A stretch of 64,000 nucleotides of DNA from Bongovirus bongo (IMGVR_UViG_2595698371_000001), one strand, 5' to 3'; positions 10,036 through 46,819 are shown, counted from the stretch's first letter. Numbers and translations are program-made. The notes: generated from the sequence alone by a model not told the origin.

Positions 10036-11091
10036 ATGCCATGGTCCCCTGCACCGGTTAGCCCGCTGCGTTCCCACCGTCCTGCATGGTTTCCCGAGGT
10101 TCCTGCCGTTGCGCAGGTCGAGCATCGCGCGGCGTGGTTCCCTCGCTGGAAGTTCGATGCCGAAGATGCTGGCGTAGGTAGCGACGAGGCGCTGCTGCTG
10201 CCTGACTTTGCGGTTGCGGATCGTGGTGTCGGCGCGGACAGCGCAGGCTTGCTGCTACCGGAGGGGCTGCTTGAGCATGAGGGCTTGGGATCCGACCTGG
10301 CGACGGTCGGGCTCTTCGGCGCGGATGGCGGTATCGGATCTGACGCCGTGCAACAGCTTGGCCTGTTTGGCTCGGGCGACGGTATCGGCAATGACGGCGT
10401 CCTGGTTAAGCCGCTCTATGTGACTGGCGATGCGGCATGCGGCGCGGATGTGGCGGCTCTCCTTGTCCCGTTGGGGACGCGGACTGACAGTGGTGTCGGT
10501 GCGGACATGGCCACATCGGCGGGGTTCGCTCCGCATGCGGCGTTGGCGGCGACGTTCAGCACGGCGGGCGCGTACACGTTCACGATCCCGGTGTGGTGCC
10601 GGTACATCGACGTGATCTTGCTCGGTGCCGGTGGTGGCGGTCGCGGCATGATGCTGATCGGCACGTGGGGCGAGGGCGGCTGGGGCGGCAACTGGTCGGT
10701 GACCACGCTTGAGCGTGGCGTCCACATCCCGTGGACCGCACGCACGATCACGGGCGCTGTCGGGGCCGGTGGCTCGGGCAGCTCGGCGGGACTTTCCCCG
10801 GCGCGTGGCGCAACTGGTGGTTCGACTACTGCCTCGACGGACGGCTGGTCTGGCACTGCAACTGGCGGCATTGGCGGGCAGAACGCGGTGTCGCCGAACG
10901 GCCGCGCGGTGAATCCACGGACGCAGACGGTTTCTGGCCAGACCTACACGGGCGGTGGCGAAGTGACTCCCGGTGCGCTGAGCGGAACCACGGGCGCAGC
11001 CCCTGGCGGTGGCGGCTCGGCGGCGATCACGACCGGCGTCTCGGGTGGTGCCGGGGCCCGTGGCCAGGCGTGGTTCTACTGCTACCAGTAG
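10036..11091 (+). CDS. minor tail protein, Gly-rich (collagen-like or fibre-like)
   Basis: GGAGG SD; 351 aa; repeated GxGSD/GGxG stretches. Confidence 0.45.
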   Translation: MPWSPAPVSPLRSHRPAWFPEVPAVAQVEHRAAWFPRWKFDAEDAGVGSDEALLLPDFAVADRGVGADSAGLLLPEGLLEHEGLGSDLATVGLFGADGGIGSDAVQQLGLFGSGDGIGNDGVLVKPLYVTGDAACGADVAALLVPLGTRTDSGVGADMATSAGFAPHAALAATFSTAGAYTFTIPVWCRYIDVILLGAGGGGRGMMLIGTWGEGGWGGNWSVTTLERGVHIPWTARTITGAVGAGGSGSSAGLSPARGATGGSTTASTDGWSGTATGGIGGQNAVSPNGRAVNPRTQTVSGQTYTGGGEVTPGALSGTTGAAPGGGGSAAITTGVSGGAGARGQAWFYCYQ

Positions 11092-14837: not shown

Positions 14838-15809
14838 ATGTGGATTGGGTGGCAGGAAGGCATGTCCGGACGGCCCGTGCTGGCGGCGAAGGGGGAGCTG
14901 CGGGCGAAGTTCTCGTACGGCAAGAACCTGGATCTGACTGAGCACTTCGGGCCCGACCTGACGGAGGCCCTGAAGACGTTCCAGCGGAACAAGGGTGGGC
15001 TGCGCACGGACGGCGTGCTGGACTACGCCACCCAGAAGGCGTTGGGCGTTCTGGAGGCGTTGAAGCCGTGGGTGTTCACGGTGGCCGGTACGGGTGCCGG
15101 TTGGGACGCGGGCTACCCGGCTGAGGTGGCGCGGGCTGTGCTGGATCTGTACCGCTGGCAGGGCGTGAACTATCCGGCGAAGCCGTTCCCGATGGGCTCG
15201 TCGGTGGACGCGGGTATTGCTGAACTGAAGAAGCTTCTGCGTGAGCGGATGGACCGGTATCCGGCCGCACGGTTCGTGCTGATCGGCTACTCGCAGGGCG
15301 CAATTGTGACCTCGATGGTGTGGCAGAACTTTATCAAGGGCTCGGACCTTGAGGCCCGCATCATCGGTTCGATCACATACGGCAACCCTTGCCGTGAACT
15401 CCACGTGGCGAATGGCAATGTGGCAGAGGGGATTCCGGTTCCCGAGGGGCGGGGGATCTCAGACTTCCGCCTGCGTTCGACTCCGTCGTGGTGGTACGAT
15501 TTTGCACACGGGGCGAACTCCCGTTTCGGCCGTGACATCTACACGGACACACCAGATGACGATGCTGGCGAGATGATGACCGCCATCTACCGCCTGGTCC
15601 AAGATCTGAAGAACATCATTGTCGGCACCGACTCGTTGATCGAGCAGGTGGGAGAGATGTTCCAGCGTCCGATCACCGAGGTCGGCGCAGCGATGTGGGC
15701 GATCTTCTTGGGCGGGCAGTTTGTTGCCACTCGCCCGTATCCGACTATGCCGCACATCAATTACGACATCAACCCAGCTGTGGCGATCCTGCGCCGGATC
15801 GCCGCGTGA
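14838..15809 (+). CDS. lysB: lysin B (cutinase-like mycolylarabinogalactan esterase)
   Basis: 323 aa; GYSQG serine-hydrolase motif; cutinase-like; follows lysA and the holin-like genes. Confidence 0.8.
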   Translation: MWIGWQEGMSGRPVLAAKGELRAKFSYGKNLDLTEHFGPDLTEALKTFQRNKGGLRTDGVLDYATQKALGVLEALKPWVFTVAGTGAGWDAGYPAEVARAVLDLYRWQGVNYPAKPFPMGSSVDAGIAELKKLLRERMDRYPAARFVLIGYSQGAIVTSMVWQNFIKGSDLEARIIGSITYGNPCRELHVANGNVAEGIPVPEGRGISDFRLRSTPSWWYDFAHGANSRFGRDIYTDTPDDDAGEMMTAIYRLVQDLKNIIVGTDSLIEQVGEMFQRPITEVGAAMWAIFLGGQFVATRPYPTMPHINYDINPAVAILRRIAA

Positions 15810-26012: not shown

Positions 26013-26239
26013 CGCTAAAGTGGTTGCGGCCGTGGATGTATCGCGGCAAGCATCGCGGGACGTTCCCGTACCACTGCCCCGATGACGTGTGCGTCCGGAT
26101 CAAGTTCTGGCTCCACGGTTCACACGTGGTGATGGGTCGCGGCGTGAGCCACCGACCGGGAGCAGCGGCCTGGCGGCGCAGCTACGAGGCTTTGCTGCGG
26201 ACTGATCCGAATGCGCCTTGGTGCCTCTACCGTGAATGA
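26009..26239 (+). CDS. hypothetical protein
   Basis: GTGA overlap; 76 aa. Confidence 0.4.
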   Translation: MTLKWLRPWMYRGKHRGTFPYHCPDDVCVRIKFWLHGSHVVMGRGVSHRPGAAAWRRSYEALLRTDPNAPWCLYRE

Positions 26240-26630
26240 AAAACAATGCAGGGCAGAAGTTCTCGAGCGATGCGGAGGGTTGTGTGAGCGGTGCGGACGC
26301 GGTGGGCCAGTCACCATGCACCACCGGAAGAAGCGCGGCCAAGGCGGGCCCTGGGAACCCTGGAACATCGTCGCGCTATGCGGCCATGGAACAACTGGCT
26401 GCCACGGCTGGGTTGAAGCTAACCCCCTGGCAGCTCACGCTACTGGTTGGCATGTCCGACCCTGGGAAGACCCGCGCAGTGTGCGCCCCACCCCAATATG
26501 GGAGACGGGGCTTCGAGACGGACCTGATGATCCTGGACGAGCTTCTGACCAGCAGAAACGCTTCCTGTATTCACCCTCCGAGCCACCTTATTCTGAGTAC
26601 GTCGAGCCGGAAGATTGGTTCGACATCTGA
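26211..26630 (+). CDS. HNH endonuclease
   Basis: CERCG...HHRKKRGQGG...N..ALC..CH HNH core. Confidence 0.65.
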   Translation: MRLGASTVNEKQCRAEVLERCGGLCERCGRGGPVTMHHRKKRGQGGPWEPWNIVALCGHGTTGCHGWVEANPLAAHATGWHVRPWEDPRSVRPTPIWETGLRDGPDDPGRASDQQKRFLYSPSEPPYSEYVEPEDWFDI

Positions 26631-31962: not shown

Positions 31963-32379
31963 TTGTGCCCCAATCACCCTGACAGGCCGGTCAAAAGCCG
32001 GGGGCTCTGTGGCAGCTGCTACGACCGAGAGCTAAAGCGTGAGAATCCCGAGTACGCAGAGCGACAGCGTCAGAATCGGCGCGAGTGGGGCGAGCGACCC
32101 GAATCCCAGCAAAAGATGCGGGACAACGAGGCACGCTACCGACGTAAGTACGGTAGCAGGGCGCACCGCGAATATGGCATCACCCGCGAGGAATACGACG
32201 CCTACATGGCCAAGCCATGTGGAATCTGCGGGGAGCCGTCAAAACATCTGGACCACAACCACACTACCGGCGAGATACGCGGAGGCTTGTGCCACCGATG
32301 CAATCTCGGACTCGGCTATTACGAGGGCTGGTTCCTCGAACATCGTCACGCAGCACTGAAATGGATCGGAGCGGAATGA
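31963..32379 (+). CDS. recombination endonuclease VII-like HNH nuclease
   Basis: C..C zinc knuckles and the LDHNHTTGEIRGGLCHRCN signature of EndoVII. Confidence 0.7.
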   Translation: MCPNHPDRPVKSRGLCGSCYDRELKRENPEYAERQRQNRREWGERPESQQKMRDNEARYRRKYGSRAHREYGITREEYDAYMAKPCGICGEPSKHLDHNHTTGEIRGGLCHRCNLGLGYYEGWFLEHRHAALKWIGAE

Positions 32380-36716: not shown

Positions 36717-37043
36717 TTGCCCACGAACTCAAAGAACGGCCCACGCTCTCGCGGCCGAACGGGCGGCAAGTTTGAACGGGCGAAGTGGCGCGTTCTCAAG
36801 GCAAACCAGATCTGCGCCCACCCAGACTGCCGTCAACTCATCGACCTGGACCTCAAGTGGCCGGATCCGATGAGCCCCACCGTGAACCACATCATCCCCG
36901 TCAAGGACTTGGCCTGGGATGACCCTCTGACGTACTCGGTGGAGAACCTCGAGCCCATGCACCTGGTGTGCAACCAGCGTCTCGGCGCTGGGCCCCGCAA
37001 GAAAAAGCCGAAGCATCCGCAGTCGCGGAACTGGCGCGAATGA
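36717..37043 (+). CDS. HNH endonuclease
   Basis: CAHPDC...NHIIPV...N..CN HNH motif; TTG start. Confidence 0.6.
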   Translation: MPTNSKNGPRSRGRTGGKFERAKWRVLKANQICAHPDCRQLIDLDLKWPDPMSPTVNHIIPVKDLAWDDPLTYSVENLEPMHLVCNQRLGAGPRKKKPKHPQSRNWRE

Positions 37044-37131
37044 CCTCGTCAGCAAACTCGTGCTAAACTGGAAGCAGATGGCAGCGCCCCTTCGGGTAGC
37101 GCGCAGCAAATTTCGATCCTAAGGACTTCAC

Positions 37132-37341
37132 ATGGCTTCTCCTCAGAACCCTTTCGTGCCGCTCGACCCAGCGGACTACAACCTGTCCGGCTCGCAGGCG
37201 GCCGAGGATGCCCTGGCGGGGATCATGAAGCCGCTCGTCGGCGCTGGCCCGCATGACGACCTGACGGTGGAAGAGCTGAATCAGCGATTCGACGGCACCG
37301 GCTCGCCGCGTCCACATACGTTCCCGACTCCGCAGAACTGA
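37132..37341 (+). CDS. hypothetical protein
   Basis: 69 aa; last CDS before the tRNA array. Confidence 0.4.
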   Translation: MASPQNPFVPLDPADYNLSGSQAAEDALAGIMKPLVGAGPHDDLTVEELNQRFDGTGSPRPHTFPTPQN

Positions 37342-37410
37342 GGTTCTGAGGTGTAGGCCCTCGAAGAGGCCCCCGGTCAGCGTATGTGCTGGTCGGGGGC
37401 CTTTTTGGTT

Positions 37411-37428
37411 CTTCCTGTAATCACCTCC
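37411..37428 (+). promoter_or_regulatory. B-motif copy CTTCCTGTAATCACCTCC at the entrance of the tRNA array
   Basis: 140 bp upstream of the first tRNA. Confidence 0.45.
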
Positions 37429-37566
37429 GCGCGGCCTCTAATCTATTTCATGTCCGGTTCAAGAGGGACCGGATAAGCGATACACCGGAGGGGCCAAGTA
37501 CCCACACCTTTCAAGCCTGGTTCCTCCACTGGGGCTCAACAGAGTTGAGGCTGAAGAGTCCCACCT

Positions 37567-37637
37567 ATGGGCGTAGCTGACTGGGAAGCAACGGTCTCCA
37601 AAGCCGTGATATGCAGGTTCGAATCCTGCCGCCCGTG
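37567..37637 (+). tRNA. tRNA-Trp (anticodon CCA)
   Basis: acceptor ATGGGCG/CGCCCGT; anticodon stem ACGGT/GCCGT with loop CTCCAAA; T-arm GCAGG-TTCGAAT-CCTGC; 3-bp D stem. Confidence 0.55.
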
Positions 37638-37718
37638 CAAGGTTCGATGTTCGGTCATTACCGAACGCCGAGCATGTTGGTTGAGAACTCAATAGTGGAA
37701 GTACAAGTAAGTTTCAAT

Positions 37719-38121
37719 GGGGCTGTACTGGTTTCGATTGCGAACCGAGTCCATGGAAGCGTGCCGGGAAGATACGCCCGTAACAGTTCAACCCTTATAA
37801 GCGCCGCATTTGTTGACGCTGATTACGCCGTAGCTGCGTGATCCGGTGGGGCACAACGGTTCACCCGTTCCCGTGTGCAATCCCGCCGTCGCCAAAACGG
37901 GGAACCTGCATACCGACTCAGCATGCAGTGAGCCAGCAATGGTCATAATGCAGATGTCCTCCCGCCGTGAGGAGCGTAGATCGGCTTTGTACCCACACGG
38001 TGACCCTTCGAGGGTTAAGCCCTGTGAGCCAATGGGATACGAGATGAGTTACAGGCTACGCACGTAGAAGAATGAGTACAGAGAACGTAAGACGCGGGTT
38101 CGATTCCCGCCAGCTCCACCA
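37719..38121 (+). ncRNA. ssrA: tmRNA (ssrA), about 403 nt
   Basis: 5' GGGGCTG pairs with 3' CAGCTCC including the G3-U70 wobble; canonical 3' tRNA-like end GCGGGTTCGATTCCCGC-CAGCTCCACCA; internal tag-like frame ...ADYAVAA followed by TGA at about 37826-37850; no credible CDS across the interval. Confidence 0.8.
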
Positions 38122-38486
38122 AGGCCTTGGTCTGGGTTCGAATCCCAGTGTGATTGAAGTGGATTCACGGATGTGCACCCGTGTCTACGCTCCGGTGGGT
38201 AGCTCCCAGCCGCGTTCACATGGTGTAAATGGCAAGCACAGGGCCTGTAAACCGGTTTCCCATCTCCGACCAAAGGATGGGTGGTGGAAACGAACTGGGT
38301 CTTAGGCAACCCCGTTCAGTCCTCGGCGTCCCAGTCCGTCGTCACCCAGACTGGGTAAGCCTAAGTGCCTGCCACAGAGCTAACCCGTGAGGTCGGGAGA
38401 ATCTGGGCACGCTTGACAGCGGAGCGGGAGACTGCGAAAGGTGTCCGTCCTAGCCCTGGTATCGACGTTAAATATCCAGGGACTCT

Positions 38487-38557
38487 TGGCCTGTCGGTTA
38501 ACGGCAAACCAGCGCCCTGTTAAGGCGTGACTCCTGGTTCGAATCCAGGTAGGCCAG
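38487..38557 (+). tRNA. tRNA-Asn (anticodon GUU)
   Basis: U1-A72 acceptor TGGCCTG/TAGGCCA (as in E. coli tRNA-Asn); D stem GGTT/AACC; anticodon arm GCGCC-CTGTTAA-GGCGT; T-arm CCTGG-TTCGAAT-CCAGG. Confidence 0.6.
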
Positions 38558-39316
38558 CATTTGGGGCATGGCCCATAAGCTGAGGTGACTCAGTGAAAGG
38601 TGAGGGTGACTCCTCGCCGCCCGCAAGGGTCCCCATGCAATCCAAACCTTGAGCAGTCCCCTGTGGGGCTGCCAGGATGCGAGTTCATCGTGTGACCAAC
38701 GCCAAGTGGTGAGGTCGGGTTCGGTACCGTGCCGAAGAGCCAGCGAGTAACGGATGAGCAGCCTGTGGGGCGGAAGGAACTTGAGTCGGAGGCCTGGCAG
38801 CCAACGGCGGGTTCCATGACCGATCTCGCGTGGACGACGGTTCACAATGCGGTTGAGGGAGAGAGTGAGTAGCCCGCCAGGCAAAAGCTCGAGAGGCGTG
38901 AAGCATTCTGTAGCTCAAAAGGTTACGGAACTTCATGGGGAAGCACGTCTCTAGTCACAACTACCACGCTATTGGTTAGCAAACTGTCCTGAACACAGTT
39001 GTAGAGGTTCGACTCCTCACAAAGCAAAAGCCTTTCCCTGCCGGTAAGCGAAAGCGCCACTAATCCCCGACTGGGAGCAGAATCGGGGCAGGACGAGCCC
39101 GCAAGGCGGATCCTGTTTGTAGACGAGTAGTGCAGCCATGGGACGGCCATCCTAACGGCGAAGCCAAAGTCGCAGAGTAGCTTTCGGCATTACGAGTGGT
39201 CAGCGTTACTGACCGGGCGTTGCACGTACACAGGGGACTGTGTGGACAAGCCGGGAATCCATAATCCGGCGAAAGCGTGTGAAGGAAGGTTTAGTCTCTA
39301 GCCCTTTCAACAACGG

Positions 39317-39386
39317 GACATAGCTCAAATGGCAGAGTGGGGCAATTGGTGCCCTGGATTCAGGTTCGACTCCTGGTGGCCCGACG
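39317..39386 (+). other. tRNA-like element, either a pseudo-tRNA or an atypical tRNA-Gln(UUG); the anticodon region is 2 nt short or has A33
   Basis: good acceptor (CGGGACA/TGGCCCG), U8, D-arm GCTC-AAATGGCA-GAGT and T-arm TCAGG-TTCGACT-CCTGG, but the anticodon arm cannot be folded canonically. Confidence 0.3.
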
Positions 39387-39388
39387 TT

Positions 39389-39766
39389 ATGGCACTGGCA
39401 GGTGAAGCGAAGCGTGAGTACCAGCGACAGTGGCGAGCGAATCGCCGCGCGGCCTGGTTTGCCGGTAAGGCGTGTGTTCGGTGTGGATCTGATGAGGATC
39501 TAGAACTCGACCACGTAGACCCGACGTTGAAGGTGACGAATGCGGTCTGGTCATGGTCGCAGGAGCGCCGCGACGTGGAGCTTGCGAAGTGTCAAGTGCT
39601 CTGCAACGCTTGCCATAAGGCTAAGACCATATCCCAGACCGTCATCACTATCGGTCTGAAGGCGTACCGCCATGGCACGTGCAGCATGTACGAGCATCAC
39701 CGATGCAGGTGCGGACTGTGTAGGTTGTGGGCGCGAAACAAGAAGCGGCGTCAACGCGCCGCGTGA
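39389..39766 (+). CDS. HNH endonuclease, paralog 1 of the tRNA-array pair
   Basis: ATG immediately after the tRNA-like element; CVRCGS...LELDHVDPT...CNACH; about 60% identical to the 44049 gene over the N-terminus (REYQRQWRANRRAAWFAGKAC versus REYMRRWVANRRSAFFASKQC). Confidence 0.65.
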   Translation: MALAGEAKREYQRQWRANRRAAWFAGKACVRCGSDEDLELDHVDPTLKVTNAVWSWSQERRDVELAKCQVLCNACHKAKTISQTVITIGLKAYRHGTCSMYEHHRCRCGLCRLWARNKKRRQRAA

Positions 39767-39769
39767 TAT

Positions 39770-39851
39770 GCGGTCTCTCCCCTATTGGCGAAGGGCCCCT
39801 GGCTGTAACCCAGGGCTTTCGAGTGTGGTGGTTCGAATCCATCAGGCCGCA
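39770..39851 (+). tRNA. tRNA-Tyr (anticodon GUA), type II
   Basis: acceptor GCGGTCT/AGGCCGC; anticodon arm CCTGG-CTGTAAC-CCAGG; long variable arm; T-loop TTCGAAT; begins 3 nt after the HNH stop codon. Confidence 0.5.
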
Positions 39852-40020
39852 CGTTATGGACTGACGAGGCATTGCGCTCACGGGCTTGCGGCCGTGAGAT
39901 AGAGCCTTCGCCCGCAAGGCCAGTCCAATGGGTGGCGATTAGAGGGAGGGCCTCGTGCCCGAATCGAAAGTGCCCAGCGGCTAGTGGAGAGGTGAGCCGA
40001 CTGAATTGCCTTTCCATCAT

Positions 40021-40092
40021 TGCTCTCTCGTCTAACTGGCAGGACACCAGAATCTGACTCTGGCAGTTGAGGTTCGAATCCTTGGGGAGCAA
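40021..40092 (+). tRNA. tRNA-Gln (anticodon CUG)
   Basis: U1-A72 acceptor TGCTCTC/GGGAGCA; D stem GTC/GAC; anticodon arm CCAGA-ATCTGAC-TCTGG; T-arm TGAGG-TTCGAAT-CCTTG. Confidence 0.5.
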
Positions 40093-40096
40093 CAAT

Positions 40097-40169
40097 CTGG
40101 GTGAGGTGTAAGTGGTTGCATGGCCGGTTTGGATCCGGGCGGTTCGAGGTTCGAGTCCTCGCACCCAGA
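40097..40169 (+). tRNA. tRNA-Pro (anticodon UGG)
   Basis: acceptor CTGGGTG/CACCCAG; anticodon loop TTTGGAT; T-arm CGAGG-TTCGAGT-CCTCG; one mismatch in the anticodon stem. Confidence 0.45.
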
Positions 40170-40210
40170 CGACGAGTTTGCTGGTTTCCTTGGCTACAAA
40201 ACCAGCGTTC

Positions 40211-40293
40211 GGAGAGTTCCGCTGAATGGTCGGCAACCGGCGTCGAATACCGGGGCAGGGTGACACCTGGGGGTTCGAGTCCTCAACTCTCCG
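40211..40293 (+). tRNA. tRNA-Ser (anticodon CGA), type II
   Basis: acceptor GGAGAGT/ACTCTCC; loop GTCGAAT; long variable arm; T-loop TTCGAGT; 83 nt. Confidence 0.4.
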
Positions 40294-40462
40294 CAACGGC
40301 CGACCGGTAGGGGTCTCCCGGTCATTTAGTCAGGTCGCTGCCCAGGCGGGATGCATACCAATCGGGCGGAATTGGGGCCTCAGGACTTAGCGTGGCACCG
40401 TCGCGAAGAGAAAGCCCACTCTGCATGGTCGTCAGGTGGGATACGGCCCTTTACGGTGCGCT

Positions 40463-40548
40463 GGAGAGTGGAACCATCTAGGTGGATGGCCGCGATTGCT
40501 AATCGTGGGGCAGCGTAACGCTGTGTGGATCGTGCCCACTCCTCTCCG
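40463..40548 (+). tRNA. tRNA-Ser-like (anticodon GCU), type II with a non-canonical T-loop
   Basis: anticodon arm CGCGA-TTGCTAA-TCGTG; variable-arm hairpin CAGCG-TAA-CGCTG; acceptor GGAGAG...CTCTCC; the T-loop lacks the TTC. Confidence 0.3.
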
Positions 40549-40656
40549 CAATGAAGAACTAGCTGGCCAGCCATCAGGGTGCCGGTTCAATTCCGGCAGG
40601 GAAAACCTGTGTTCTTCAGGGGGTTTGGTTGGAGTCATGACCGCCACTCCCCACAA

Positions 40657-40731
40657 CGGGTTGTAGCTCAGATTGGTGAGAGCGCTCGGTTGAAACCCGA
40701 GAGGCCCCTGGTTCGAATCCAGGCATCCCGG
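40657..40731 (+). tRNA. tRNA-Phe (anticodon GAA)
   Basis: D-arm GCTC-AGATTGGTGA-GAGC; anticodon arm CTCGG-TTGAAAC-CCGAG; T-arm CCTGG-TTCGAAT-CCAGG; acceptor CGGGTTG/CATCCCG with one U-U mismatch. Confidence 0.55.
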
Positions 40732-40853
40732 CGCACAAGGGAAACCAGACTCGCCCGCTACTGGTGAAAAGCGGGACAGACGGCAGGGGAGGACAAGCCG
40801 CAGCGAAAACCTCCACAACTCTGACTCATGATGTTTGCTGATACAATGAACTT

Positions 40854-41303
40854 ATGAGAAAGCGCTGCCCCCGCTGCGGGGTTGAGAAGGATTGCTCCGA
40901 GTTCTATAAGAACGCGCGCCGGAAGGACGGCCTGCAGCCGTACTGCAAGCGTTGCCACAAGGACACAAACAACGAGTGGTACGCCAACTCGGAGAAGCGA
41001 CGTACTGACATCAAGCGTCGCCGCAAGGCCCATATTGAGATGTTGCAGGAGCACTTGCGGCAGCACCTGATTGACAACCCGTGCGTGGATTGCGGGGAGT
41101 CCGATCTCGTTGTCCTGGACCTGGACCACCGGGATGGCGAGAGTAAGGTCAAAGAGGTCGCAAAGCTGATCCGCGATCAGGTCAGCCTTGAGAAGTTTCA
41201 GGCCGAGATCGCAAAGTGCGACACCCGTTGCGCTAACTGCCATAGGCGCATGACGGCTCGCCGTCATGGCGCGTGGTGGAGGTCCAAAGACATTGCGGTG
41301 TAG
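40854..41303 (+). CDS. HNH endonuclease of a different family from the 39389 and 44049 pair
   Basis: CPRCG...C..C zinc knuckles; DLDHRDGE...CANCH; preceded by an extended -10 TGATACAAT. Confidence 0.6.
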   Translation: MRKRCPRCGVEKDCSEFYKNARRKDGLQPYCKRCHKDTNNEWYANSEKRRTDIKRRRKAHIEMLQEHLRQHLIDNPCVDCGESDLVVLDLDHRDGESKVKEVAKLIRDQVSLEKFQAEIAKCDTRCANCHRRMTARRHGAWWRSKDIAV

Positions 41304-41368
41304 AGCAGTTCGGAGTGCTCGCTTGGCTCATAACCAAGAGGCCGTCGGTTCAAATCCGACCACCGCAA
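41294..41368 (+). tRNA. tRNA-Met (anticodon CAU), elongator type; a lysidine tRNA-Ile2 cannot be excluded
   Basis: perfect cloverleaf: TGCGGTG/CACCGCA, TA, GAGC-AGTTCGGAGT-GCTC, CTTGG-CTCATAA-CCAAG, GTCGG-TTCAAAT-CCGAC; overlaps the HNH stop codon by 10 nt. Confidence 0.65.
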
Positions 41369-41450
41369 CGACGCACACAGGTTCTGCAAGGGGTAGGTAA
41401 AACGGGTCGACGCCCCAGTGGCCCAAACCTGGTGCATTGAAAGGAAATAC

Positions 41451-41612
41451 ATGGCTGAGAAGCTGAAGTCCGGTGTCGCCGCTGCTCCCATCGTGAAGGC
41501 GGTCAACGATCTGATCGAGCAGACCGGCGTGATCGACGTGACGGCGCTGGCCCAGACTGTCGCGGAACTCTCGGGCCGCGTCGAGGAGCTGGAAGGGGCA
41601 GCCGAGGAGTGA
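41451..41612 (+). CDS. small hypothetical protein (53 aa) inside the tRNA array
   Basis: ATG with GAAAGGAAA SD; coiled-coil-like. Confidence 0.4.
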   Translation: MAEKLKSGVAAAPIVKAVNDLIEQTGVIDVTALAQTVAELSGRVEELEGAAEE

Positions 41613-41648
41613 CCTTGCCGTCCTGGCCATGACGTGAAACTGGCCGAT

Positions 41649-41723
41649 CCCGCCGCAGCACGACGGACGTGCACCTCGCTACGAACGAGAAGGCTGCTGG
41701 TTCGAATCCAGTCGGTGGGTCCA
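41649..41723 (+). tRNA. tRNA-Arg (anticodon ACG) with encoded CCA
   Basis: acceptor CCCGCCG/CGGTGGG; D-arm GCAC-GACGGAC-GTGC; loop CTACGAA; T-arm GCTGG-TTCGAAT-CCAGT; 3' TCCA. Confidence 0.45.
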
Positions 41724-41725
41724 TA

Positions 41726-41797
41726 CCTCTTGTAGCTCAATGGTGAGAGCGCCGGTTTGTGAGACCGGTGACCTGCGTTCGATTCGCAGCAGGGGGA
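41726..41797 (+). tRNA. tRNA-His (anticodon GUG)
   Basis: D-arm GCTC-AATGGTGA-GAGC; anticodon arm CCGGT-TTGTGAG-ACCGG; T-arm CTGCG-TTCGATT-CGCAG; no encoded G-1/C73 pair. Confidence 0.5.
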
Positions 41798-41811
41798 CAG
41801 AAGGAGACGAC

Positions 41812-42069
41812 ATGGGCGTAATGCTCTCTCAGGCCGCTCTGGAGCGCGTTGAGGAGGCTTCGGCATGGTTGCGTCAGCGGCCCGAAGTTGAGGCACGAGA
41901 GAGGCAGCTAGCCGCCATTCTCGAGCACGAGATGCGACTGGCCGGATGGGATGGCACCGGAGATCTGCGGCCGTGGTTCACCCGGTGCATGGAGATCAAC
42001 ATTGCCTTGGATCAAGCTCAGGGTCGACCACCGTCGATTCAGGACTGGCCGGGGTATATGGCTCGCTAG
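41812..42069 (+). CDS. hypothetical protein (85 aa) inside the tRNA array
   Basis: GAAGGAGACGAC SD plus ATG. Confidence 0.45.
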   Translation: MGVMLSQAALERVEEASAWLRQRPEVEARERQLAAILEHEMRLAGWDGTGDLRPWFTRCMEINIALDQAQGRPPSIQDWPGYMAR

Positions 42070-42133
42070 GCAAACTGGCAAAGCCGCCTGATTCAGAATC
42101 AGGTGCTTCCGAGTTCGACTCTCGGGCGAGCTA
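42060..42133 (+). tRNA. tRNA with anticodon CAG (Leu-decoding) on a short-variable-arm (type I) scaffold with A73
   Basis: acceptor GGCTCGC/GCGAGCT; D GGC-n11-GCC; anticodon arm CCTGA-TTCAGAA-TCAGG; 4-5 nt variable arm; T-arm CCGAG-TTCGACT-CTCGG; overlaps the upstream CDS stop codon. Confidence 0.4.
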
Positions 42134-42134
42134 C

Positions 42135-43249
<1,115 letters not shown>

Positions 43250-43256
43250 TCCCATC

Positions 43257-43329
43257 GGGACGTTGGTGAAACGGCTATCACCGCACGCTCTTAACGTGTC
43301 AGTTCTGGGTTCGAATCCCAGGCGTCCCA
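43257..43329 (+). tRNA. tRNA-Lys (anticodon CUU)
   Basis: GGGACGT/GCGTCCC; GTGA-AACGGCTA-TCAC; GCACG-CTCTTAA-CGTGT; CTGGG-TTCGAAT-CCCAG. Confidence 0.6.
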
Positions 43330-43330
43330 C

Positions 43331-43402
43331 TTGGCTATGGTGAAGTAGTGATCACGTCGACCTGATAAGTCGGAGTTCTGGGGGCAGTACCCGGTAGCCA
43401 TA
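43331..43402 (+). tRNA. tRNA-Ile-like (anticodon GAU) with a non-canonical T-loop; possible pseudo-tRNA
   Basis: D GTGA-n8-TCAC; anticodon arm TCGAC-CTGATAA-GTCGG; the T-loop GGCAGTA lacks TTC. Confidence 0.3.
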
Positions 43403-43486
43403 CCAACTTGTGTCACCGCAGCAATGCGCCAGCGTTCCAACCTTGTCGGAGAGGCAGCTGAGCGAAGTCCGACGTGACACAATCCA

Positions 43487-43562
43487 ATGCGTGTGTGATG
43501 TTTAACGGCTAGCATTCCTGTCTTCCAAACAGGCTGTGCGGGTTCGAATCCCGCCACGCGTT
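43487..43562 (+). tRNA. tRNA-Gly (anticodon UCC)
   Basis: anticodon arm CCTGT-CTTCCAA-ACAGG; T-arm GCGGG-TTCGAAT-CCCGC; acceptor ATGCGTG/CACGCGT; atypical D-arm. Confidence 0.45.
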
Positions 43563-43563
43563 C

Positions 43564-43583
43564 CACCTGCGATTACAGGACAG
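43564..43583 (+). promoter_or_regulatory. composite AB motif CACCTGCGATTACAGGACAG inside the tRNA array
   Basis: directly after tRNA-Gly. Confidence 0.45.
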
Positions 43584-43617
43584 TGGGAAACTGTATGCCC
43601 AATGCCTTGTACCAAAG

Positions 43618-43688
43618 GCCCCGCTCGTCTAATGGGAAGGCCGCTGCGTTACAAGCAGCAGACGGGAGTTCGATTCTCTCGCGGGGTA
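43618..43688 (+). tRNA. tRNA-Val (anticodon UAC)
   Basis: GCCCCGC/GCGGGGT; anticodon arm GCTGC-GTTACAA-GCAGC; T-arm GGGAG-TTCGATT-CTCTC. Confidence 0.5.
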
Positions 43689-43750
43689 CGTCGACCTGAC
43701 GAGGTCACCGGGGACGGATCACCCGGCTTAGCGGCGAACGATCCTCCAAT

Positions 43751-43822
43751 GCCGGTATAGCTCAGTGGCTAGAGCACCTGTCTAGTAAACAGGAGACCAG
43801 GGTTCGATTCCCTGTTCCGGCT
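43751..43822 (+). tRNA. tRNA-Thr (anticodon AGU)
   Basis: GCTC-AGTGGCTA-GAGC; CCTGT-CTAGTAA-ACAGG; CAGGG-TTCGATT-CCCTG. Confidence 0.55.
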
Positions 43823-43826
43823 CTCT

Positions 43827-43899
43827 GGGGGTGCATGTTCCTTGGGGGCGACGGATCCTTGCAAGATCTGTGCGGTGGGTTCGATTCCCATCATCTCCA
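43827..43899 (+). tRNA. tRNA-Ala (anticodon UGC)
   Basis: G3-U70 wobble in the acceptor GGGGGTG/CATCTCC; anticodon arm GGATC-CTTGCAA-GATCT; T-arm GTGGG-TTCGATT-CCCAT; weak D-arm. Confidence 0.4.
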
Positions 43900-43937
43900 C
43901 AATCACAATAGGTCTCTCATCGGACCTATTGTGTCAA

Positions 43938-44010
43938 TCCCGATGTCATCTAGTGGACCAGGATGCCGCCCTGTCGAGGCGGTCACGCGAGTTCGAATCT
44001 CGTCGTCGGG
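43938..44010 (+). tRNA. tRNA-Asp (anticodon GUC)
   Basis: CCCGATG/CGTCGGG; D ATCT-n9-GGAT; anticodon arm CCGCC-CTGTCGA-GGCGG; T-arm GCGAG-TTCGAAT-CTCGT. Confidence 0.55.
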
Positions 44011-44048
44011 ACGTGGCATACAAGGATCCTTCCGTGCAGCGCGAGTAT

Positions 44049-44414
44049 ATGCGGAGGTGGGTGGCCAATCGCCGCTCAGCGTTTTTCGCAAGTAAGCAGT
44101 GCGCAATGTGCGGGGCAGGTGAGGAACTGGAGTTGGATCATATTGATCCAACGAAGAAGGTTGATCATCGCATCTGGAGCTGGACAGATGCGCGCCGGTC
44201 TGAGGAGTTGGCCAAGTGCCAAGTCCTGTGCGCCTCCTGTCACAAGAAGAAGACGGGAGAGCAGTGGTACGCGAACCGCTCCGTGTCTGAGAATGCCCAC
44301 CACGGCACTAGCCGTAGGTATCGGAAGATGAAGTGCCGTTGCGGGCTGTGCAGGCTCGGCAACACCAACCGCAGTCGCGCATTGCGTCAGCGGCACCGCG
44401 TTCCCGTGGAGTAA
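44049..44414 (+). CDS. HNH endonuclease, paralog 2 of the tRNA-array pair
   Basis: ATG 44049 (alternative GTG 44013) just after tRNA-Asp; CAMCGAGEELELDHIDPT...CASCH; the ORF-track ORF began inside the tRNA. Confidence 0.65.
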   Translation: MRRWVANRRSAFFASKQCAMCGAGEELELDHIDPTKKVDHRIWSWTDARRSEELAKCQVLCASCHKKKTGEQWYANRSVSENAHHGTSRRYRKMKCRCGLCRLGNTNRSRALRQRHRVPVE

Positions 44415-44473
44415 TTGGTTATCTCGCCTGACTCTCAATCAGGAGATTGCGCGTTCAAGTCGCGTCGGGAATA
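44400..44473 (+). tRNA. tRNA-Glu (anticodon CUC)
   Basis: acceptor GTTCCCG/CGGGAAT; anticodon arm CCTGA-CTCTCAA-TCAGG; T-arm GCGCG-TTCAAGT-CGCGT; overlaps the last five codons of the HNH gene. Confidence 0.5.
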
Positions 44474-44479
44474 CGTTGA

Positions 44480-44516
44480 CCCTCAACAGGTTTCGACCTG
44501 TTGGGGGTCTTTTTTA
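44480..44516 (+). terminator. rho-independent terminator closing the tRNA array
   Basis: GACCCTCAACAGGT-ttcg-ACCTGTTGGGGGTC followed by TTTTTT. Confidence 0.8.
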
Positions 44517-44530
44517 TGCGAAAACACCTT

Positions 44531-44551
44531 CTGACCTGCGATTACAGAACC
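44531..44551 (+). promoter_or_regulatory. composite AB motif CTGACCTGCGATTACAGAACC
   Basis: between the array terminator and rtcB. Confidence 0.5.
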
Positions 44552-44647
44552 GGGCCATACTTCTTGCCGTGAGTGTGATTGCCCTCCTGATCAGCCTCCT
44601 GCTGTTCGGCCTGGCGCTCCTAATCCTCTGTCACTGAAGGGATTCCA

Positions 44648-45886
44648 TTGACCCCGACTACTTTAGCTCCGAAGATTGTCAACTTCGCTTCGGAGATCGA
44701 CCAAGCGACGATTGACCAAGCCAAGCAGATCGCGGAGATGCCGTTCATCTACCCGCACCTGGCGCTGATGCCGGATGCCCACTCGGGCAAGGGATCTGCG
44801 GTCGGCACCGTCATCCCCACCAAGGGCGCTGTCATTCCGGCCGCTGTTGGGGTGGACATCGGCTGCGGCATGATTGCCGTCAAGACGCGGTTCCAGTGGG
44901 ACGCACTGCACACCGCGAAGGCTGGCGCTCCGGATCTGGCTGCGCTGCGCCGTCAGATTGAGGCGGCGATTCCGCTGTCTCCCGGCAACTACAACACGAC
45001 GCTGTCGAAGTTCAACTTCACACGCAAGAAGCACGAAGAGCTGATCCAGTTGCAGCAGGAGCTGGACGTGGACCTGTCTCACTCGCCGAAGTGGATGGAG
45101 CAGCTGGGATCTCTCGGCGGCGGCAACCACTTCATCGAGTTGTGTGTCGACGCCGAGGACAACGTGTGGCTGTTCCTGCACTCCGGTTCTCGCGGAGTCG
45201 GCAACAAGATCGCGCAGCGCCACATCAAGGCGGCTGTGGAGTACTGCGCAGAGGGTGCGCGGCTGGCTGGCTCCGATTCGGTTCGCGCCCGCTACCGACT
45301 CCCTCACCGAGATCTCGCGTTCCTGGACGAGGGAACGTGGATGTTCGACACGTACATCAAGGAGCTGGAGTGGGCCCAGCGGTTCGCGTACCTGAACCGT
45401 GCGGAGATGATGGACCGCTTCGTCCAGGTGTTCGCGTGGTGGATGGGCGTCGAGGCTCAGCGTGTCGAGGTGGAGCGCATCAACTGCCACCACAACTACA
45501 CGGTCCCCACCGTGATCGACGGGGAGCGAGTGTGGTTGACCCGCAAGGGGGCAATCGACGCGACCGAGGGCAAGCTGGGCGTGATCCCGGGCTCGATGGG
45601 CACCCGGTCGTACGTGGTGCGGGGGAAGGGCTGCAGCGCTTCTTTGCATTCTGCGCCCCATGGAGCCGGTCGCCGGTTCTCCCGCACGAAGGCCAAGGAA
45701 CTGTTCACCAGGGATGACCTGGCCGAGCAGATGCAGGGCATCGAGTGGCGCGAGGACATCGCCGAGAAGCTGGTCGATGAGATCCCGTCCTGCTACAAGG
45801 ACATCGACCAGGTCATGGCCGATGCCGAACCGCTGGTGGACGTGGTGACAACCCTGCGCCAGGTTCTCAACGTCAAGGGCACCTAG
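44648..45886 (+). CDS. rtcB: RtcB-family RNA ligase (3'-phosphate/5'-hydroxyl)
   Basis: 412 aa; metal-ligand motifs (HSGKGS..., GGGNHFIE, HSGSRG, NCHHN, HGAGR); TTG start with GAAGGGA SD. Confidence 0.85.
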   Translation: MTPTTLAPKIVNFASEIDQATIDQAKQIAEMPFIYPHLALMPDAHSGKGSAVGTVIPTKGAVIPAAVGVDIGCGMIAVKTRFQWDALHTAKAGAPDLAALRRQIEAAIPLSPGNYNTTLSKFNFTRKKHEELIQLQQELDVDLSHSPKWMEQLGSLGGGNHFIELCVDAEDNVWLFLHSGSRGVGNKIAQRHIKAAVEYCAEGARLAGSDSVRARYRLPHRDLAFLDEGTWMFDTYIKELEWAQRFAYLNRAEMMDRFVQVFAWWMGVEAQRVEVERINCHHNYTVPTVIDGERVWLTRKGAIDATEGKLGVIPGSMGTRSYVVRGKGCSASLHSAPHGAGRRFSRTKAKELFTRDDLAEQMQGIEWREDIAEKLVDEIPSCYKDIDQVMADAEPLVDVVTTLRQVLNVKGT

Positions 45887-45919
45887 CCCGAATCATCCAC
45901 TACTGCAAAGGAGTTGCCT

Positions 45920-46819
45920 ATGAGCTGGCAAATGTGGGCATTCATCGTCATCGGCATCATCGGTGTGCTGATCACGGCGGGCGGGTTTCTGGGTTCGCGT
46001 GTGGCGACCAAGCAGGCCGACAAGGACGGCATGAAGATGATCGGCGGCTTCGGCACGCTGGTCATCGCTCTCGGGGCCATCATTTTGGCCACCGGCTGCT
46101 TCACCATCGTCGGCACCCGGCAGGTGGGCATCGAGACGGCGTTCAACCGGCCGACCGGTAAGACGTTCGAGAACGGCCTGAACTTCAAGGCCCCGTGGGC
46201 CAGCGTGGTCGAAATGGACGGCGCGATCCAGATCAACAAGTACGAGGGCCCGAGCGCCATCCGTGTGCGTCTGGGGAACAACTCGACGGCCGGTGCTGAC
46301 ACGTCGATCCGGTGGCGTATCAAGCAGGATGCGGCTGATGAGCTGTTCGTTGACTACAAGACGTTCGACAACGTGCGGGTCAACTTGATCGAGCGCAATC
46401 TGCAGGTCGCGGAGAACGAGATTTTCCAGTCGTTCGATCCGCTGGACGCCGAGTGGGCCGAGGGTGTGCCGCTGCAGCAGTTCGCCGACAAGGCGGCGGC
46501 GAAGCTCAAGGATCTGGTCGGTCAGCAGGTGGAGATCATCGACGTGTCGGTGTCGCGCCTGGACTACGACGAGCAGACCGAGGGCAAGATCAACCAGCTG
46601 AACGCGGAGCGGGCCAACACCGCTGTGGCGAAGCAGGCCAAGGACACTGCCACTGCGCAGGCCGAGGCGAACCGTGAGCTGGCGTCGTCGGTGTCGAACG
46701 ATCCGAACGTCATCGTGGCGAACTGCATCACCAAGGCGCTGGACAAGGGCGTGTCCCCGTTCGGTTGCTGGCCGACTGGCGGCGAGATGCTGCTGACCGT
46801 CCCAGCACCCGTCAAGTAA
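45920..46819 (+). CDS. SPFH/band-7 (stomatin/prohibitin-like) membrane protein
   Basis: N-terminal TM helices then a band-7 core (TRQVGIETAF...KAPWASVVEMD...); AAGGAG SD. Confidence 0.55.
   Translation: MSWQMWAFIVIGIIGVLITAGGFLGSRVATKQADKDGMKMIGGFGTLVIALGAIILATGCFTIVGTRQVGIETAFNRPTGKTFENGLNFKAPWASVVEMDGAIQINKYEGPSAIRVRLGNNSTAGADTSIRWRIKQDAADELFVDYKTFDNVRVNLIERNLQVAENEIFQSFDPLDAEWAEGVPLQQFADKAAAKLKDLVGQQVEIIDVSVSRLDYDEQTEGKINQLNAERANTAVAKQAKDTATAQAEANRELASSVSNDPNVIVANCITKALDKGVSPFGCWPTGGEMLLTVPAPVK

Follow-up and report, generated by a model that had tools for sequence, protein, structure and literature searches.

Free-standing HNH endonuclease genes in the tRNA array of mycobacteriophage PegLeg as probable homing elements

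Why are endonuclease genes lodged between the tRNA genes of a phage, with hardly a base to spare on either side? The final 64 kb of the genome of Mycobacterium phage PegLeg, a member of cluster M1 (NC_021299.1), raise this question; they are the stretch analysed here and called the window, where a window position equals the record position minus 16955. An earlier note on this DNA had proposed that its HNH genes are homing-endonuclease insertions, processing factors or drivers of tRNA-block shuffling. We consider it probable (roughly 80%) that gp96, gp117 and gp102 are free-standing, mobile HNH homing endonuclease genes that occupy inter-tRNA spacers of a tRNA operon. That they are active nucleases, where they would cut, and that their spread is due to cutting and not to ordinary recombination are what we infer from the comparisons below.

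HNH genes packed between tRNA genes

The coordinates of the array are collected in Table 1. Rfam agreed with the ARAGORN tRNA calls, tRNA-Tyr excepted, which scored 23 bits against a gathering score of 29 bits. In the gene called tRNA-Gln(ttg), an A precedes the anticodon at a position where U is near-universal, so that "tRNA-like" is the safer label.

Table 1. Window coordinates of the tRNA/HNH array and of nuclease genes upstream
Feature	Coordinates	Strand	Basis or remark
Weak HNH gene	26211-26630		20.3 bits, slightly below cut-off
Endonuclease VII gene	31963-32379		E 3e-11
HNH gene	36717-37043		Profile match
Strong hairpin upstream of array	37362-37407		Matches the hairpin closing the array
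tRNA-like gene "tRNA-Gln(ttg)"	39314-39385	+	ARAGORN; Rfam tRNA 41.2 bits; upstream edge of cassette A
gp96, HNH endonuclease, 125 aa, site A	39389-39766	+	Pfam HNH; phrog_4234
tRNA-Tyr(gta), HNH-linked allele, 83 nt	39770-39852	+	ARAGORN; takes the place of a 78-nt allele
Cassette C leader	40816-40853	+	PegLeg-unique DNA, from end of shared DNA to gp102 start codon
gp102, HNH endonuclease, 149 aa, site C	40854-41303	+	phrog_2255
tRNA-Met(cat), HNH-linked allele, 76 nt	41294-41369	+	ARAGORN; Rfam 64 bits
tRNA-Asp(gtc), gp117-linked allele	43939-44012	+	ARAGORN and Rfam
gp117, HNH endonuclease, 133 aa from GTG 44013 (most likely start), site D	44013-44414	+	Pfam HNH; phrog_4234
tRNA-Glu(ctc), HNH-linked allele	44400-44474	+	ARAGORN; Rfam 61 bits
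Strong intrinsic-terminator-like hairpin closing the array	44478-44509	+	14-bp stem, then TTTTTT

As had been noticed earlier, gp96 and gp117 are related, with proteins 54% identical (E 3e-39). Both match Pfam PF01844 (HNH; 23.0 and 26.7 bits, cut-off 21.4) and the PHROG HNH family phrog_4234 (E 8e-51 for gp96; E 2.5e-48 for gp117, over profile positions 1-126 of 130). Their tight packing was likewise borne out: gp96 starts 3 nt past tRNA-Gln and stops 3 nt before tRNA-Tyr, while the final 15 nt of gp117 lie inside tRNA-Glu, with the stop codon at tRNA positions 13-15. The start of gp117 had been placed at 44049 and is annotated in GenBank at 44034; it is most likely GTG 44013, the base right after tRNA-Asp, because the VAYKDPSVQREY N-terminus is conserved in homologues, phrog_4234 is matched from profile position 1 and the 133-aa annotation in Auspice is identical.

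The third gene, gp102, had been described as overlapping tRNA-Met and as unrelated to the other two. The 10-nt overlap holds, with the TAG stop codon forming tRNA positions 8-10, but the lack of relationship does not: the gp102 core is homologous to the gp96/gp117 HNH core in profile-profile comparison (probability 97.7%, E 1.8e-12). The gene falls in a different family from theirs (phrog_2255, "HNH endonuclease", E 8e-39) and had no Pfam match at E 0.01 or better. Profile searches also recovered the three nuclease genes claimed farther upstream (Table 1).

Alignments of 11 and of 30 homologues show a conserved CxxC...DH...KC...C..H motif, corresponding to C30, C33, D42, H43, C69, C73 and H77 of gp117, with C30 nearly invariant across the 30. 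These alignments contain the catalytic D-H, the distal His and the two zinc-binding Cys pairs by which the HNH superfamily is recognised, and gp102 and the HNH protein of Skinny share the corresponding residues. At the motif, a confident AlphaFold2 model of gp117 (pLDDT 92) shows two strands and then a long helix; its best PDB matches in Foldseek are the HNH nucleases Cap5 and T5 SciA, although these are weak (E 0.3 or worse). The gp117 sequence matched no solved structure, and no GIY-YIG domain was found in the HNH proteins with Pfam or PHROGs.

Presence and absence among cluster M1 phages

Comparison with related genomes had been set beforehand as the refutation test, with fixed and syntenic genes as the refuting outcome. 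Instead, each HNH gene varies among near-identical M1 phages. We compared 14 phages at four sites, namely A (gp96), B (an HNH gene after tRNA-Pro), C (gp102) and D (gp117), and all four are polymorphic. PegLeg is occupied at A, C and D, Glaske16 and SirSheldon at A and D, Bricole at A, Skinny and LilhomieP at B and D, and Auspice at D; SlimJimmy is occupied at A and has D deleted, and Bongo and five Bongo-like phages have no HNH gene at any site. Thus gp96 is carried by 5 of the 14, the gene after tRNA-Pro by two, and gp117 by six, plus one deletion remnant. All four combinations of gp96 and gp117 presence occur, and the variation assorts independently. At 99% identity or more gp102 was found in PegLeg only, and identity with all other M1 phages ends at 40815. 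Its occurrence in one sequenced phage counts against claiming mobility of gp102 within M1.

The cassettes themselves hardly vary. Cassette D (551 bp) is 100% identical across all carriers; of the copies of cassette A (566 bp), four are 100% identical and that of Bricole 99.8%, in phages that diverge by 1-3% elsewhere. Identical cassettes on diverged backgrounds point to recent spread, and they weigh against the view, taken up below, that the genes are passive passengers. In SlimJimmy, gp117 has an internal deletion of 322 bp (44066-44387) with the PegLeg-type tRNA-Asp and tRNA-Glu retained, as would be expected of the degeneration and loss stage of a homing-endonuclease cycle. The paralogs had also been called a duplicated pair. 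Alignment of their flanks revealed no scars in common, and gp96 and gp117 are old, independent arrivals, not the products of a recent duplication.

The same comparison bears on whether the HNH proteins are immobile housekeeping factors that process tRNA precursors or partner the terminase in packaging. Some phage HNH proteins, such as HK97 gp74, do assist terminase, and the PegLeg genes run in the same direction as the tRNAs, close against them, in a unit bounded by two strong terminators. However, Bongo and five further M1 phages lack the genes, despite having the same isolation host and being otherwise 97-98% identical where the region aligns; the SlimJimmy copy is internally deleted, and the packaging genes lie far away. 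Since sister phages do without the HNH genes, the processing role raised earlier is unsupported, and we regard a housekeeping function of either kind as scarcely probable.

Diverged tRNA alleles linked to the nuclease genes

Each HNH gene is linked to a diverged allele of the abutting tRNA, whereas the flanks beyond the cassette are essentially identical. The abutting tRNAs are 58-83% identical to their HNH-minus alleles, while tRNA-Phe, tRNA-Lys and tRNA-Thr are 100% identical between HNH-plus and HNH-minus phages. At the left edge of cassette A, identity with HNH-minus phages ends at 39313; the tRNA-like gene that follows shares 64% identity with its positional counterpart in Bongo and replaces a tRNA-Arg(acg)-like gene of HNH-minus phages.

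The outgroup Reindeer gives these differences a direction, resembling the HNH-minus allele for Tyr, Met, Glu and Pro. For tRNA-Tyr, where the PegLeg and Bongo alleles are 64% identical, Reindeer is nearer to Bongo (83%) than to PegLeg (60%). The corresponding values are 88% and 63% for tRNA-Met, whose PegLeg allele is 60% identical to the 72-nt allele of Bongo, and 79% and 61% for tRNA-Glu, whose alleles are 58% identical. The HNH-linked Tyr, Met, Glu and Pro alleles therefore appear to be of foreign origin; a search for their donor found none. For tRNA-Asp, 83% identical between PegLeg and Bongo, Reindeer sides with the PegLeg allele (96%), a resemblance that counts against the foreign-allele pattern. 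In Auspice, a PegLeg-identical tract (43750-44512) lies in diverged surrounding DNA, as expected if flanking markers were co-converted with the nuclease gene.

Might the replacement tRNAs themselves be what is selected? Cassettes could be kept for escape from host tRNA-cleaving defences or for late-gene codon use, with the HNH protein mainly a tool of tRNA amplification or exchange. HNH-linked alleles indeed keep their anticodon while differing by 17-42% in sequence, the phage carries a near-complete tRNA set, tmRNA and RtcB, and in T4 amplification of the tRNA-Tyr gene driven by the nuclease SegB defeats the Septu defence (PMC13096335). But no tRNA duplication or amplification adjoins the HNH genes in PegLeg, and cassette-free sister phages grow on the same host strain. 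This explanation seems to us distinctly improbable.

The earlier idea of cassette shuffling of tRNA blocks survives in part, in that every HNH gene is tied to a replaced, diverged allele of its abutting tRNA. Yet a Gly-Val tRNA block (43411-43749) has been swapped among M1 phages (59-64% identity) with no HNH gene in either allele, and rtcB likewise shows patchy mosaicism. Exchange of tRNA blocks thus needs no resident HNH gene, and ordinary recombination among co-circulating phages could account for part of the pattern. Both observations favour the passenger view, according to which the array is a recombination hot spot where conserved tRNA homology promotes ordinary or homeologous block exchange, and the HNH genes, possibly inactive, are carried along. 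It gains further from cassette borders that fall at tRNA gene ends or inside a tRNA acceptor stem, and from scattered tRNA remnants in the spacers. Against it, catalytic and zinc-binding residues are kept in distant homologues, which argues for selection on activity. We judge passive carriage unlikely.

Homing between tRNA genes in PegLeg and elsewhere

Phages of clusters C1 and L, Gordonia phage GodonK and coliphage JohannJBalmer have homologues lying between tRNA genes, and 10 of 11 distinct contexts inspected in isolate phages have a tRNA within 100 nt, PegLeg's two included. In IMG/VR, a tRNA lies within 100 nt at 55 of 80 loci of the gp96/gp117 family and 46 of 80 of the gp102 family, counts made without a matched control family, the sole control tried having returned only cluster M relatives. 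Both families are dwellers of tRNA arrays in viral metagenomes. Such adjacency of two HNH families (58-69% of loci) is not predicted by hitch-hiking and weighs further against passive carriage. Start codons lie 0-40 nt past the upstream tRNA, directly abutting it in gp117, GodonK and one viral contig, and at 23 of 44 loci the stop codon is inside the downstream tRNA. The Thr|Thr junction of cluster C1 holds a gp96/gp117-family gene in about 96 of 204 records and is hence polymorphic.

The homing-endonuclease reading is thus supported by presence/absence polymorphism, independent assortment, one deleted remnant and the polymorphic C1 junction. On this reading, two related phages would co-infect one cell, and the HNH nuclease would cut the allele that lacks its gene, either at the neighbouring tRNA gene or just beside it. 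The HNH-bearing genome would then template repair of the break, so that the nuclease gene and the tightly linked, cleavage-resistant tRNA allele or alleles are copied in, an "intronless homing" with co-conversion comparable to that in T4 SegB experiments. Over time, foreign tRNA alleles would be installed while the nuclease gene spreads and then decays by deletion. The reading frames would start right past one tRNA and reach or enter the next because the occupied spacers are only a few bases long.

The closest characterised analogue is T4 SegB, a nuclease that cuts at a tRNA T-psi-C motif and drives the transmission of the tRNA region in which it lies (PMC2330249). Like it (PMC2330249; PMC13096335), the PegLeg genes are free-standing among phage tRNAs, missing from close relatives, inherited with surrounding tRNA alleles and strongly co-localised with tRNAs across many phages. 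SegB has a GIY-YIG fold, however, and the PegLeg enzymes are HNH, so that they would be SegB-like in working while standing outside its family; their frames also physically abut or overlap the flanking tRNAs. For SegB, T-psi-C cleavage and near-100% inheritance were measured, whereas for the PegLeg enzymes both are predictions from sequence comparison. Free-standing HNH homing endonucleases such as T4 MobE (PMC2790892) share the catalytic family, the intergenic position and mobilisation with flanking DNA, but they lie between protein genes (nrd) rather than tRNAs, and no close relationship in sequence to the PegLeg proteins could be detected.

Mycobacterial tRNA arrays on chromosomes and plasmids also contain HNH genes, in some cases along with GOLLD RNA (PMC5966550; PMC6582537), and in cyanobacteria HNH genes lie upstream of long tRNA arrays (PMC8421152). 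Among the protein genes found inside tRNA arrays, an HNH endonuclease is the most widespread, and some arrays are PegLeg-like prophage remnants with GOLLD RNA, which the 64-kb window also contains. Those reports stay at the level of gene content; allele replacement and overlap of reading frame and tRNA lie beyond their resolution. Later papers (PMC5966550; PMC6409571) credit Pope et al. 2014 (J Virol 88:2461) with connecting HNH genes to the diversity of tRNAs in cluster M, in a study of the same genes in the same phage among three genomes (Bongo, PegLeg and Rey); the finding is thus real but already known. The present analysis extends the comparison to a matrix of 14 genomes and adds the deletion remnant, the polarity given by the outgroup and the counts across viral metagenomes.

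The packing admits a further, speculative reading, to which we give only a small chance: that these HNH families are a dedicated tRNA-array lineage whose reading frame is fused to its linked tRNAs, making nuclease synthesis and tRNA maturation mutually exclusive. Were the array transcribed as a single RNA, RNase P cutting at the downstream tRNA would strip off the stop codon, while maturation of the upstream tRNA at its 3' end would leave a nearly leaderless nuclease message. One RNA molecule would then give either nuclease or mature tRNA, and non-stop products would pass to tmRNA, a gene for which is present in the phage itself. Such an arrangement, reminiscent of mitochondrial tRNA punctuation, would give a toxic, selfish nuclease an inbuilt brake, and the overlap would tie the nuclease inseparably to its resistant tRNA allele.

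Array layout and the three HNH genes

By megablast, positions 37000-46000 align end to end and at 100% with record NC_021299.1 of Mycobacterium phage PegLeg, a cluster M1 member of the genus Bongovirus; each window position equals the record position minus 16955. The window thus covers the final 64 kb of PegLeg's 80,955 bp. ARAGORN placed 19 tRNAs in it, 18 of them on the + strand within 37567-44474, and three small genes of this array, gp96, gp102 and gp117, already carry an HNH endonuclease annotation in GenBank.

Features of the PegLeg tRNA array and related elements (window positions)
Feature	Position	Strand	Remarks
tRNA-Arg(ccg)	15399-15494	+	ARAGORN; isolated, 96 nt, ~22 kb upstream of array
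HNH, weak	26211		upstream nuclease
Endonuclease VII	31963		upstream nuclease
HNH	36717		upstream nuclease
Terminator-like hairpin	37362-37407		20-bp stem then T run; strong; upstream border of array
tmRNA, phage-encoded	37719-38121	+	Rfam, 98 bits; missed by ARAGORN
GOLLD RNA	38891-39304	+	full-length; Rfam RF02032, 216 bits vs gathering score 150
tRNA-Gln(ttg)	39314-39385	+	ARAGORN
gp96 HNH	39389-39766	+	start 3 nt past tRNA-Gln(ttg); stop 3 nt before tRNA-Tyr
tRNA-Tyr	39770-39852	+	ARAGORN
gp102 HNH	40854-41303	+	end 10 nt inside tRNA-Met; TAG stop = tRNA positions 8-10
tRNA-Met	41294-41369	+	ARAGORN
tRNA-Asp	43939-44012	+	ARAGORN
gp117 HNH	44013-44414	+	probable GTG start, revised; end 15 nt inside tRNA-Glu
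tRNA-Glu	44400-44474	+	ARAGORN
Terminator-like hairpin	44478-44509		14-bp stem then T run; strong; downstream border of array

The earlier note had described a related HNH pair packed against tRNAs, and this was borne out by the ARAGORN coordinates, by 54% identity between gp96 and gp117 (E 3e-39) and by the passing of the Pfam HNH threshold by both. Its spacing of tRNA-Tyr after gp96, its overlap of tRNA-Glu with the gp117 end and its three upstream HNH/EndoVII genes held as well. Its account of gp102 stood for the tRNA-Met overlap but not for the word 'unrelated', as the gp102 core can be aligned to the profile of gp96/gp117 with 97.7% probability. By this alignment gp102 is homologous to gp96 and gp117 (phrog_4234), while its family, phrog_2255, is distinct and has an N-terminal zinc-finger-like module.

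The start of gp117, previously placed at 44049, is most likely the GTG directly after tRNA-Asp. The resulting N-terminus, VAYKDPSVQREY, lines up with those of homologues from the first residue onward and with the phrog_4234 profile from its position 1, and the protein is the same as one of 133 aa that is annotated in phage Auspice. Gordonia phage GodonK has this N-terminus too, and its sole start codon also directly follows a tRNA. Conservation of the catalytic D-H, the distal His and the cysteine pairs across distant homologues supports the prediction that the PegLeg HNH proteins are active nucleases. An AlphaFold2 model was confident (pLDDT 92); Foldseek matches in the PDB to solved HNH nucleases were weak, and no solved structure matching gp117 or gp102 by sequence was found.

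The two bordering hairpins suggest that the tRNA/tmRNA/GOLLD/HNH/nrdB block between them is one transcription unit. A crude scan, which mycobacterial promoters may escape, found no sigma-70-like promoter inside the array. If the HNH genes and tRNAs were co-transcribed, RNase P cutting at tRNA-Met or tRNA-Glu would remove the stop codons of gp102 and gp117, and tRNA-Asp 3' processing would give a gp117 message starting about at the GTG. Both are expected from what is established about RNase P; that they serve a function is speculative and in our estimate improbable.

Several other elements lie in or near the array. The GOLLD RNA is conserved in sequence across the aligned M1 phages, and its end lies 10 nt upstream of the tRNA-like gene at the head of the gp96 cassette. 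GOLLD has been reported in PegLeg-like mycobacterial tRNA islands (PMC6582537), and no link of GOLLD to mycobacteriophages themselves was found in the literature searched. The cassette-opening tRNA-Gln(ttg) has A in place of U before the anticodon and so may not be a working tRNA. Its annotation varies among phages (Gln(ttg), Gln(tgg) or none), and phages lacking the HNH gene have at its place a 'tRNA-Arg(acg)' or a tRNA without assigned type. In SlimJimmy, a dense cluster of differences runs across the tmRNA (37769-38246). The long spacers at 40210-40293, 43824-43938 and 40548-40656 hold tRNA-like fragments. One is a tRNA-Sec-like match of 30.6 bits, others are stretches resembling a T-arm (GGTTCGA(T/G)TCC), and the Thr-Asp spacer is the counterpart of a tRNA-Ala(tgc) in the annotations of Bricole and of the outgroup phage Reindeer; these fragments are probably decayed tRNA genes. 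The isolated tRNA-Arg(ccg) is longer than is usual for this type and may have been called falsely or contain an insertion.

Presence, absence and linked tRNA alleles among M1 phages

We compared the arrays of Bongo, Glaske16, SirSheldon, SlimJimmy, Skinny, LilhomieP, Bricole and Auspice directly, and placed the other M1 phages by protein and DNA searches; IPhane7, TyDawg, Dulcita, Diminimus and Izel were scored HNH-free by coverage and the absence of matches of at least 99%. HNH genes occupy four sites: A, the Gln/Arg/Tyr junction (Gln or Arg, then Tyr; gp96); B, downstream of tRNA-Pro (a phrog_2255 HNH absent in PegLeg); C, Phe..Met (gp102); and D, the Asp/Glu junction (gp117).

HNH occupancy of the four array sites in M1 phages
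Phage	A	B	C	D
PegLeg	+	-	+	+
Glaske16, SirSheldon	+	-	-	+
Bricole	+	-	-	-
SlimJimmy	+	-	-	deletion remnant
Skinny, LilhomieP	-	+	-	+
Auspice	-	-	-	+
Bongo	-	-	-	-
IPhane7, TyDawg, Dulcita, Diminimus, Izel	-	-	-	-

All four A/D combinations occur. The earlier note had held that fixed, syntenic HNH genes would speak against homing; given this matrix, the genes are not fixed and syntenic across M1 phages but vary in presence and absence. Dispensability of the genes in sister phages contradicts a housekeeping role of the HNH proteins, whether in packaging or in tRNA processing, the latter being an alternative raised with the original observation.

In the alignments, the HNH events are block replacements rather than clean insertions. 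At site A, HNH-minus phages match up to 39313, where the next base opens the upstream tRNA, and match fully again from ~39856, just past tRNA-Tyr; each of the two flanking tRNAs is 64% identical between alleles. At site C, the match ends at 40815 and returns within the 3' acceptor strand of tRNA-Met (alleles 60% identical). Between the site D alleles, tRNA-Asp is 83% and tRNA-Glu 58% identical, and in Bongo these two tRNAs are separated by 1 nt. The tRNA-Pro immediately upstream of the site B HNH is an 80% variant. Unlike these HNH-flanking tRNAs, tRNA-Phe, Lys and Thr do not differ between PegLeg and Bongo (100% identity).

Cassettes A and D, each an HNH gene with its linked tRNA alleles, are more uniform than their surroundings. 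Cassette D (551 bp) is 100% identical across all carriers, and cassette A (566 bp) shows no differences among four carriers (100%) and is 99.8% identical in Bricole, whereas adjacent DNA of the carriers diverges from PegLeg by 1-3%. Identical cassettes on diverged backgrounds are evidence for recent spread. In Auspice, a PegLeg-identical tract at 43750-44512 lies inside otherwise diverged sequence and looks like a conversion tract centred on gp117. Reindeer, ~90% identical to PegLeg, has Tyr, Met, Glu and Pro tRNAs that are 79-91% identical to the HNH-minus alleles vs 60-73% to the HNH-linked ones; the latter are thus imported, with tRNA-Asp an exception to this polarity. No donor of the foreign alleles emerged when cassettes A and D were searched by sensitive blastn in 50,697 phage records; the matches were to M1 carriers, to HNH cores of C1 and Myrna phages (66-68%) and to M2 tRNA-Tyr (79%).

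SlimJimmy has lost 44066-44387 of gp117 and retains the PegLeg-type tRNA-Asp and tRNA-Glu, which by its sequence is the degeneration stage expected of a homing endonuclease gene. A tblastn search of the other long spacers in 37001-44600 with nine family proteins gave only noise (E > 0.1) for further decayed HNH remnants. The flank alignment proposed in the earlier note revealed no duplicated insertion scars: by blastn, gp96 and gp117 share 218 nt of ORF core (64%) and nothing in their 200-bp flanks. This rules out recent duplication of the cassettes, which are old, independent arrivals.

Association with tRNAs beyond PegLeg

The tblastn matches of gp96/gp117 sit in tRNA arrays of unrelated phages. 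Cluster C1 provides examples in HyRo and Catera (Thr(tgt)-HNH-Thr(ggt)), in Cali (upstream of tRNA-Gly) and in Rabinovish and Lukilu (adjoining tRNA-Leu), and cluster L in Crossroads (Trp-HNH-Leu) and CicholasNage (after tRNA-Trp); others are GodonK (Gly-HNH-Val) and coliphage JohannJBalmer (Ser-HNH-Lys). One metagenomic homologue lies between Asn and Gln within an 18-tRNA array, and one Streptomyces homologue lies away from any tRNA. The C1 Thr/Thr site is itself variable, with the HyRo-type HNH in ~96 of 204 records, an empty site in about as many and another family member in others.

An IMG/VR scan with the family alignment found a tRNA within 1.5 kb in 62 of 80 gp96/gp117-family loci, and within 100 nt of the match in 55; for the gp102 family, the counts were 53 and 46 of 80. 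The PegLeg HNH at 26211, tried as a control for this enrichment, gave seven relatives, all from cluster M, and was unusable as such. The gp96/gp117-family frame stops inside the downstream same-strand tRNA in 23 of 44 loci and 0-10 nt before it in 9. Given this recurrence, HNH-tRNA abutment and overlap are family-wide traits. Some ORF-tRNA overlaps are nevertheless trivial, since frames entering a tRNA tend to end at the conserved U8-A9-G10 (TAG) or in the D-loop; Reindeer gp101, which overlaps tRNA-Met with the same 10-nt geometry, is not an HNH and is apparently a spurious ORF ending at that TAG.

Proposed homing, recombination and known systems

Intronless homing with co-conversion is the best-supported model for these HNH genes. 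In a cell infected by two related phages, the HNH would cut the relative's sensitive allele within or next to the adjoining tRNA gene, and repair would copy in the HNH gene together with the linked resistant tRNA allele or alleles. For the PegLeg enzymes, we infer nuclease activity, target site and nuclease dependence of spread. The earlier reading of the pair as homing endonucleases is supported by the polymorphism, the linked imported tRNA alleles, the identical cassettes and the deletion remnant.

The HNH genes might instead be purely passive passengers of recombination. The tRNA-Gly/tRNA-Val block at 43411-43749 has been exchanged among M1 phages in two versions that are 59-64% identical, with spacers of 52 and 61 nt in the PegLeg type vs 4 and 3 nt in the Bongo type, and neither version holds an HNH gene or a detectable remnant. 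The RNA ligase gene rtcB is also patchily mosaic: two tight substitution clusters (45235-45342 and 45502-45575) separate Auspice and LilhomieP from PegLeg, which suggests patchy gene conversion. Ordinary recombination is thus frequent in the array and could explain part of the pattern. However, the conserved catalytic residues and the strong association of two separate HNH families with tRNAs disfavour a purely passive role. A less likely rival is that the replacement tRNA alleles help against tRNA-targeting defences; no local tRNA amplification was seen in its support.

Two further differences were recorded. Skinny has a LAGLIDADG endonuclease gene directly after rtcB (L006, the Skinny sequence, 9938-10327), and exactly the last ~180 nt of its rtcB (window 45701-45883) differ from PegLeg by many substitutions, a pattern resembling the co-conversion tract of a further homing endonuclease. 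A tRNA-Cys(gca) after tRNA-His is absent in PegLeg and present in Bongo, Bricole, LilhomieP, Auspice and Reindeer (window 41799-41812 vs 5439-5530 of the compared sequence L002), a presence/absence difference without any HNH.

Intronless homing with co-conversion, proposed here from sequence, has been demonstrated for T4 SegB, a GIY-YIG rather than HNH enzyme of the T4 tRNA cluster. SegB recognises a T-psi-C motif in tRNA and, together with the tRNA markers around it, shows nearly 100% inheritance (PMC2330249). It is broadly co-localised with tRNAs, and tRNA gene amplification by SegB defeats Septu defence (PMC13096335). The HNH-tRNA association in cluster M was reported earlier, according to PMC5966550 and PMC6409571, by Pope et al. 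2014 on Bongo, PegLeg and Rey, and PMC6409571 draws the parallel with SegB as well. Mycobacterial and cyanobacterial tRNA arrays that contain HNH genes have also been described (PMC6582537, PMC8421152). The HNH finding is thus real and correctly interpreted, yet already known, and adds little as a discovery. New here are the matrix of 14 genomes, the gp117 deletion remnant, the polarity read from the outgroup, a revised start for gp117, the gp102 homology with gp96 and gp117, and counts across metagenomes of how often a tRNA adjoins or overlaps the ORF.

Phage tRNA sets are increasingly viewed as counter-measures against host tRNA-cleaving defences, and, besides homing endonucleases, few mechanisms are known that can swap or amplify phage tRNA genes quickly. 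The PegLeg locus is a clean natural example, with four polymorphic HNH sites in near-identical culturable phages of a tractable host. Because 'filled' and 'empty' alleles are both in hand, nuclease-driven replacement of tRNA alleles is directly testable in phage crosses.
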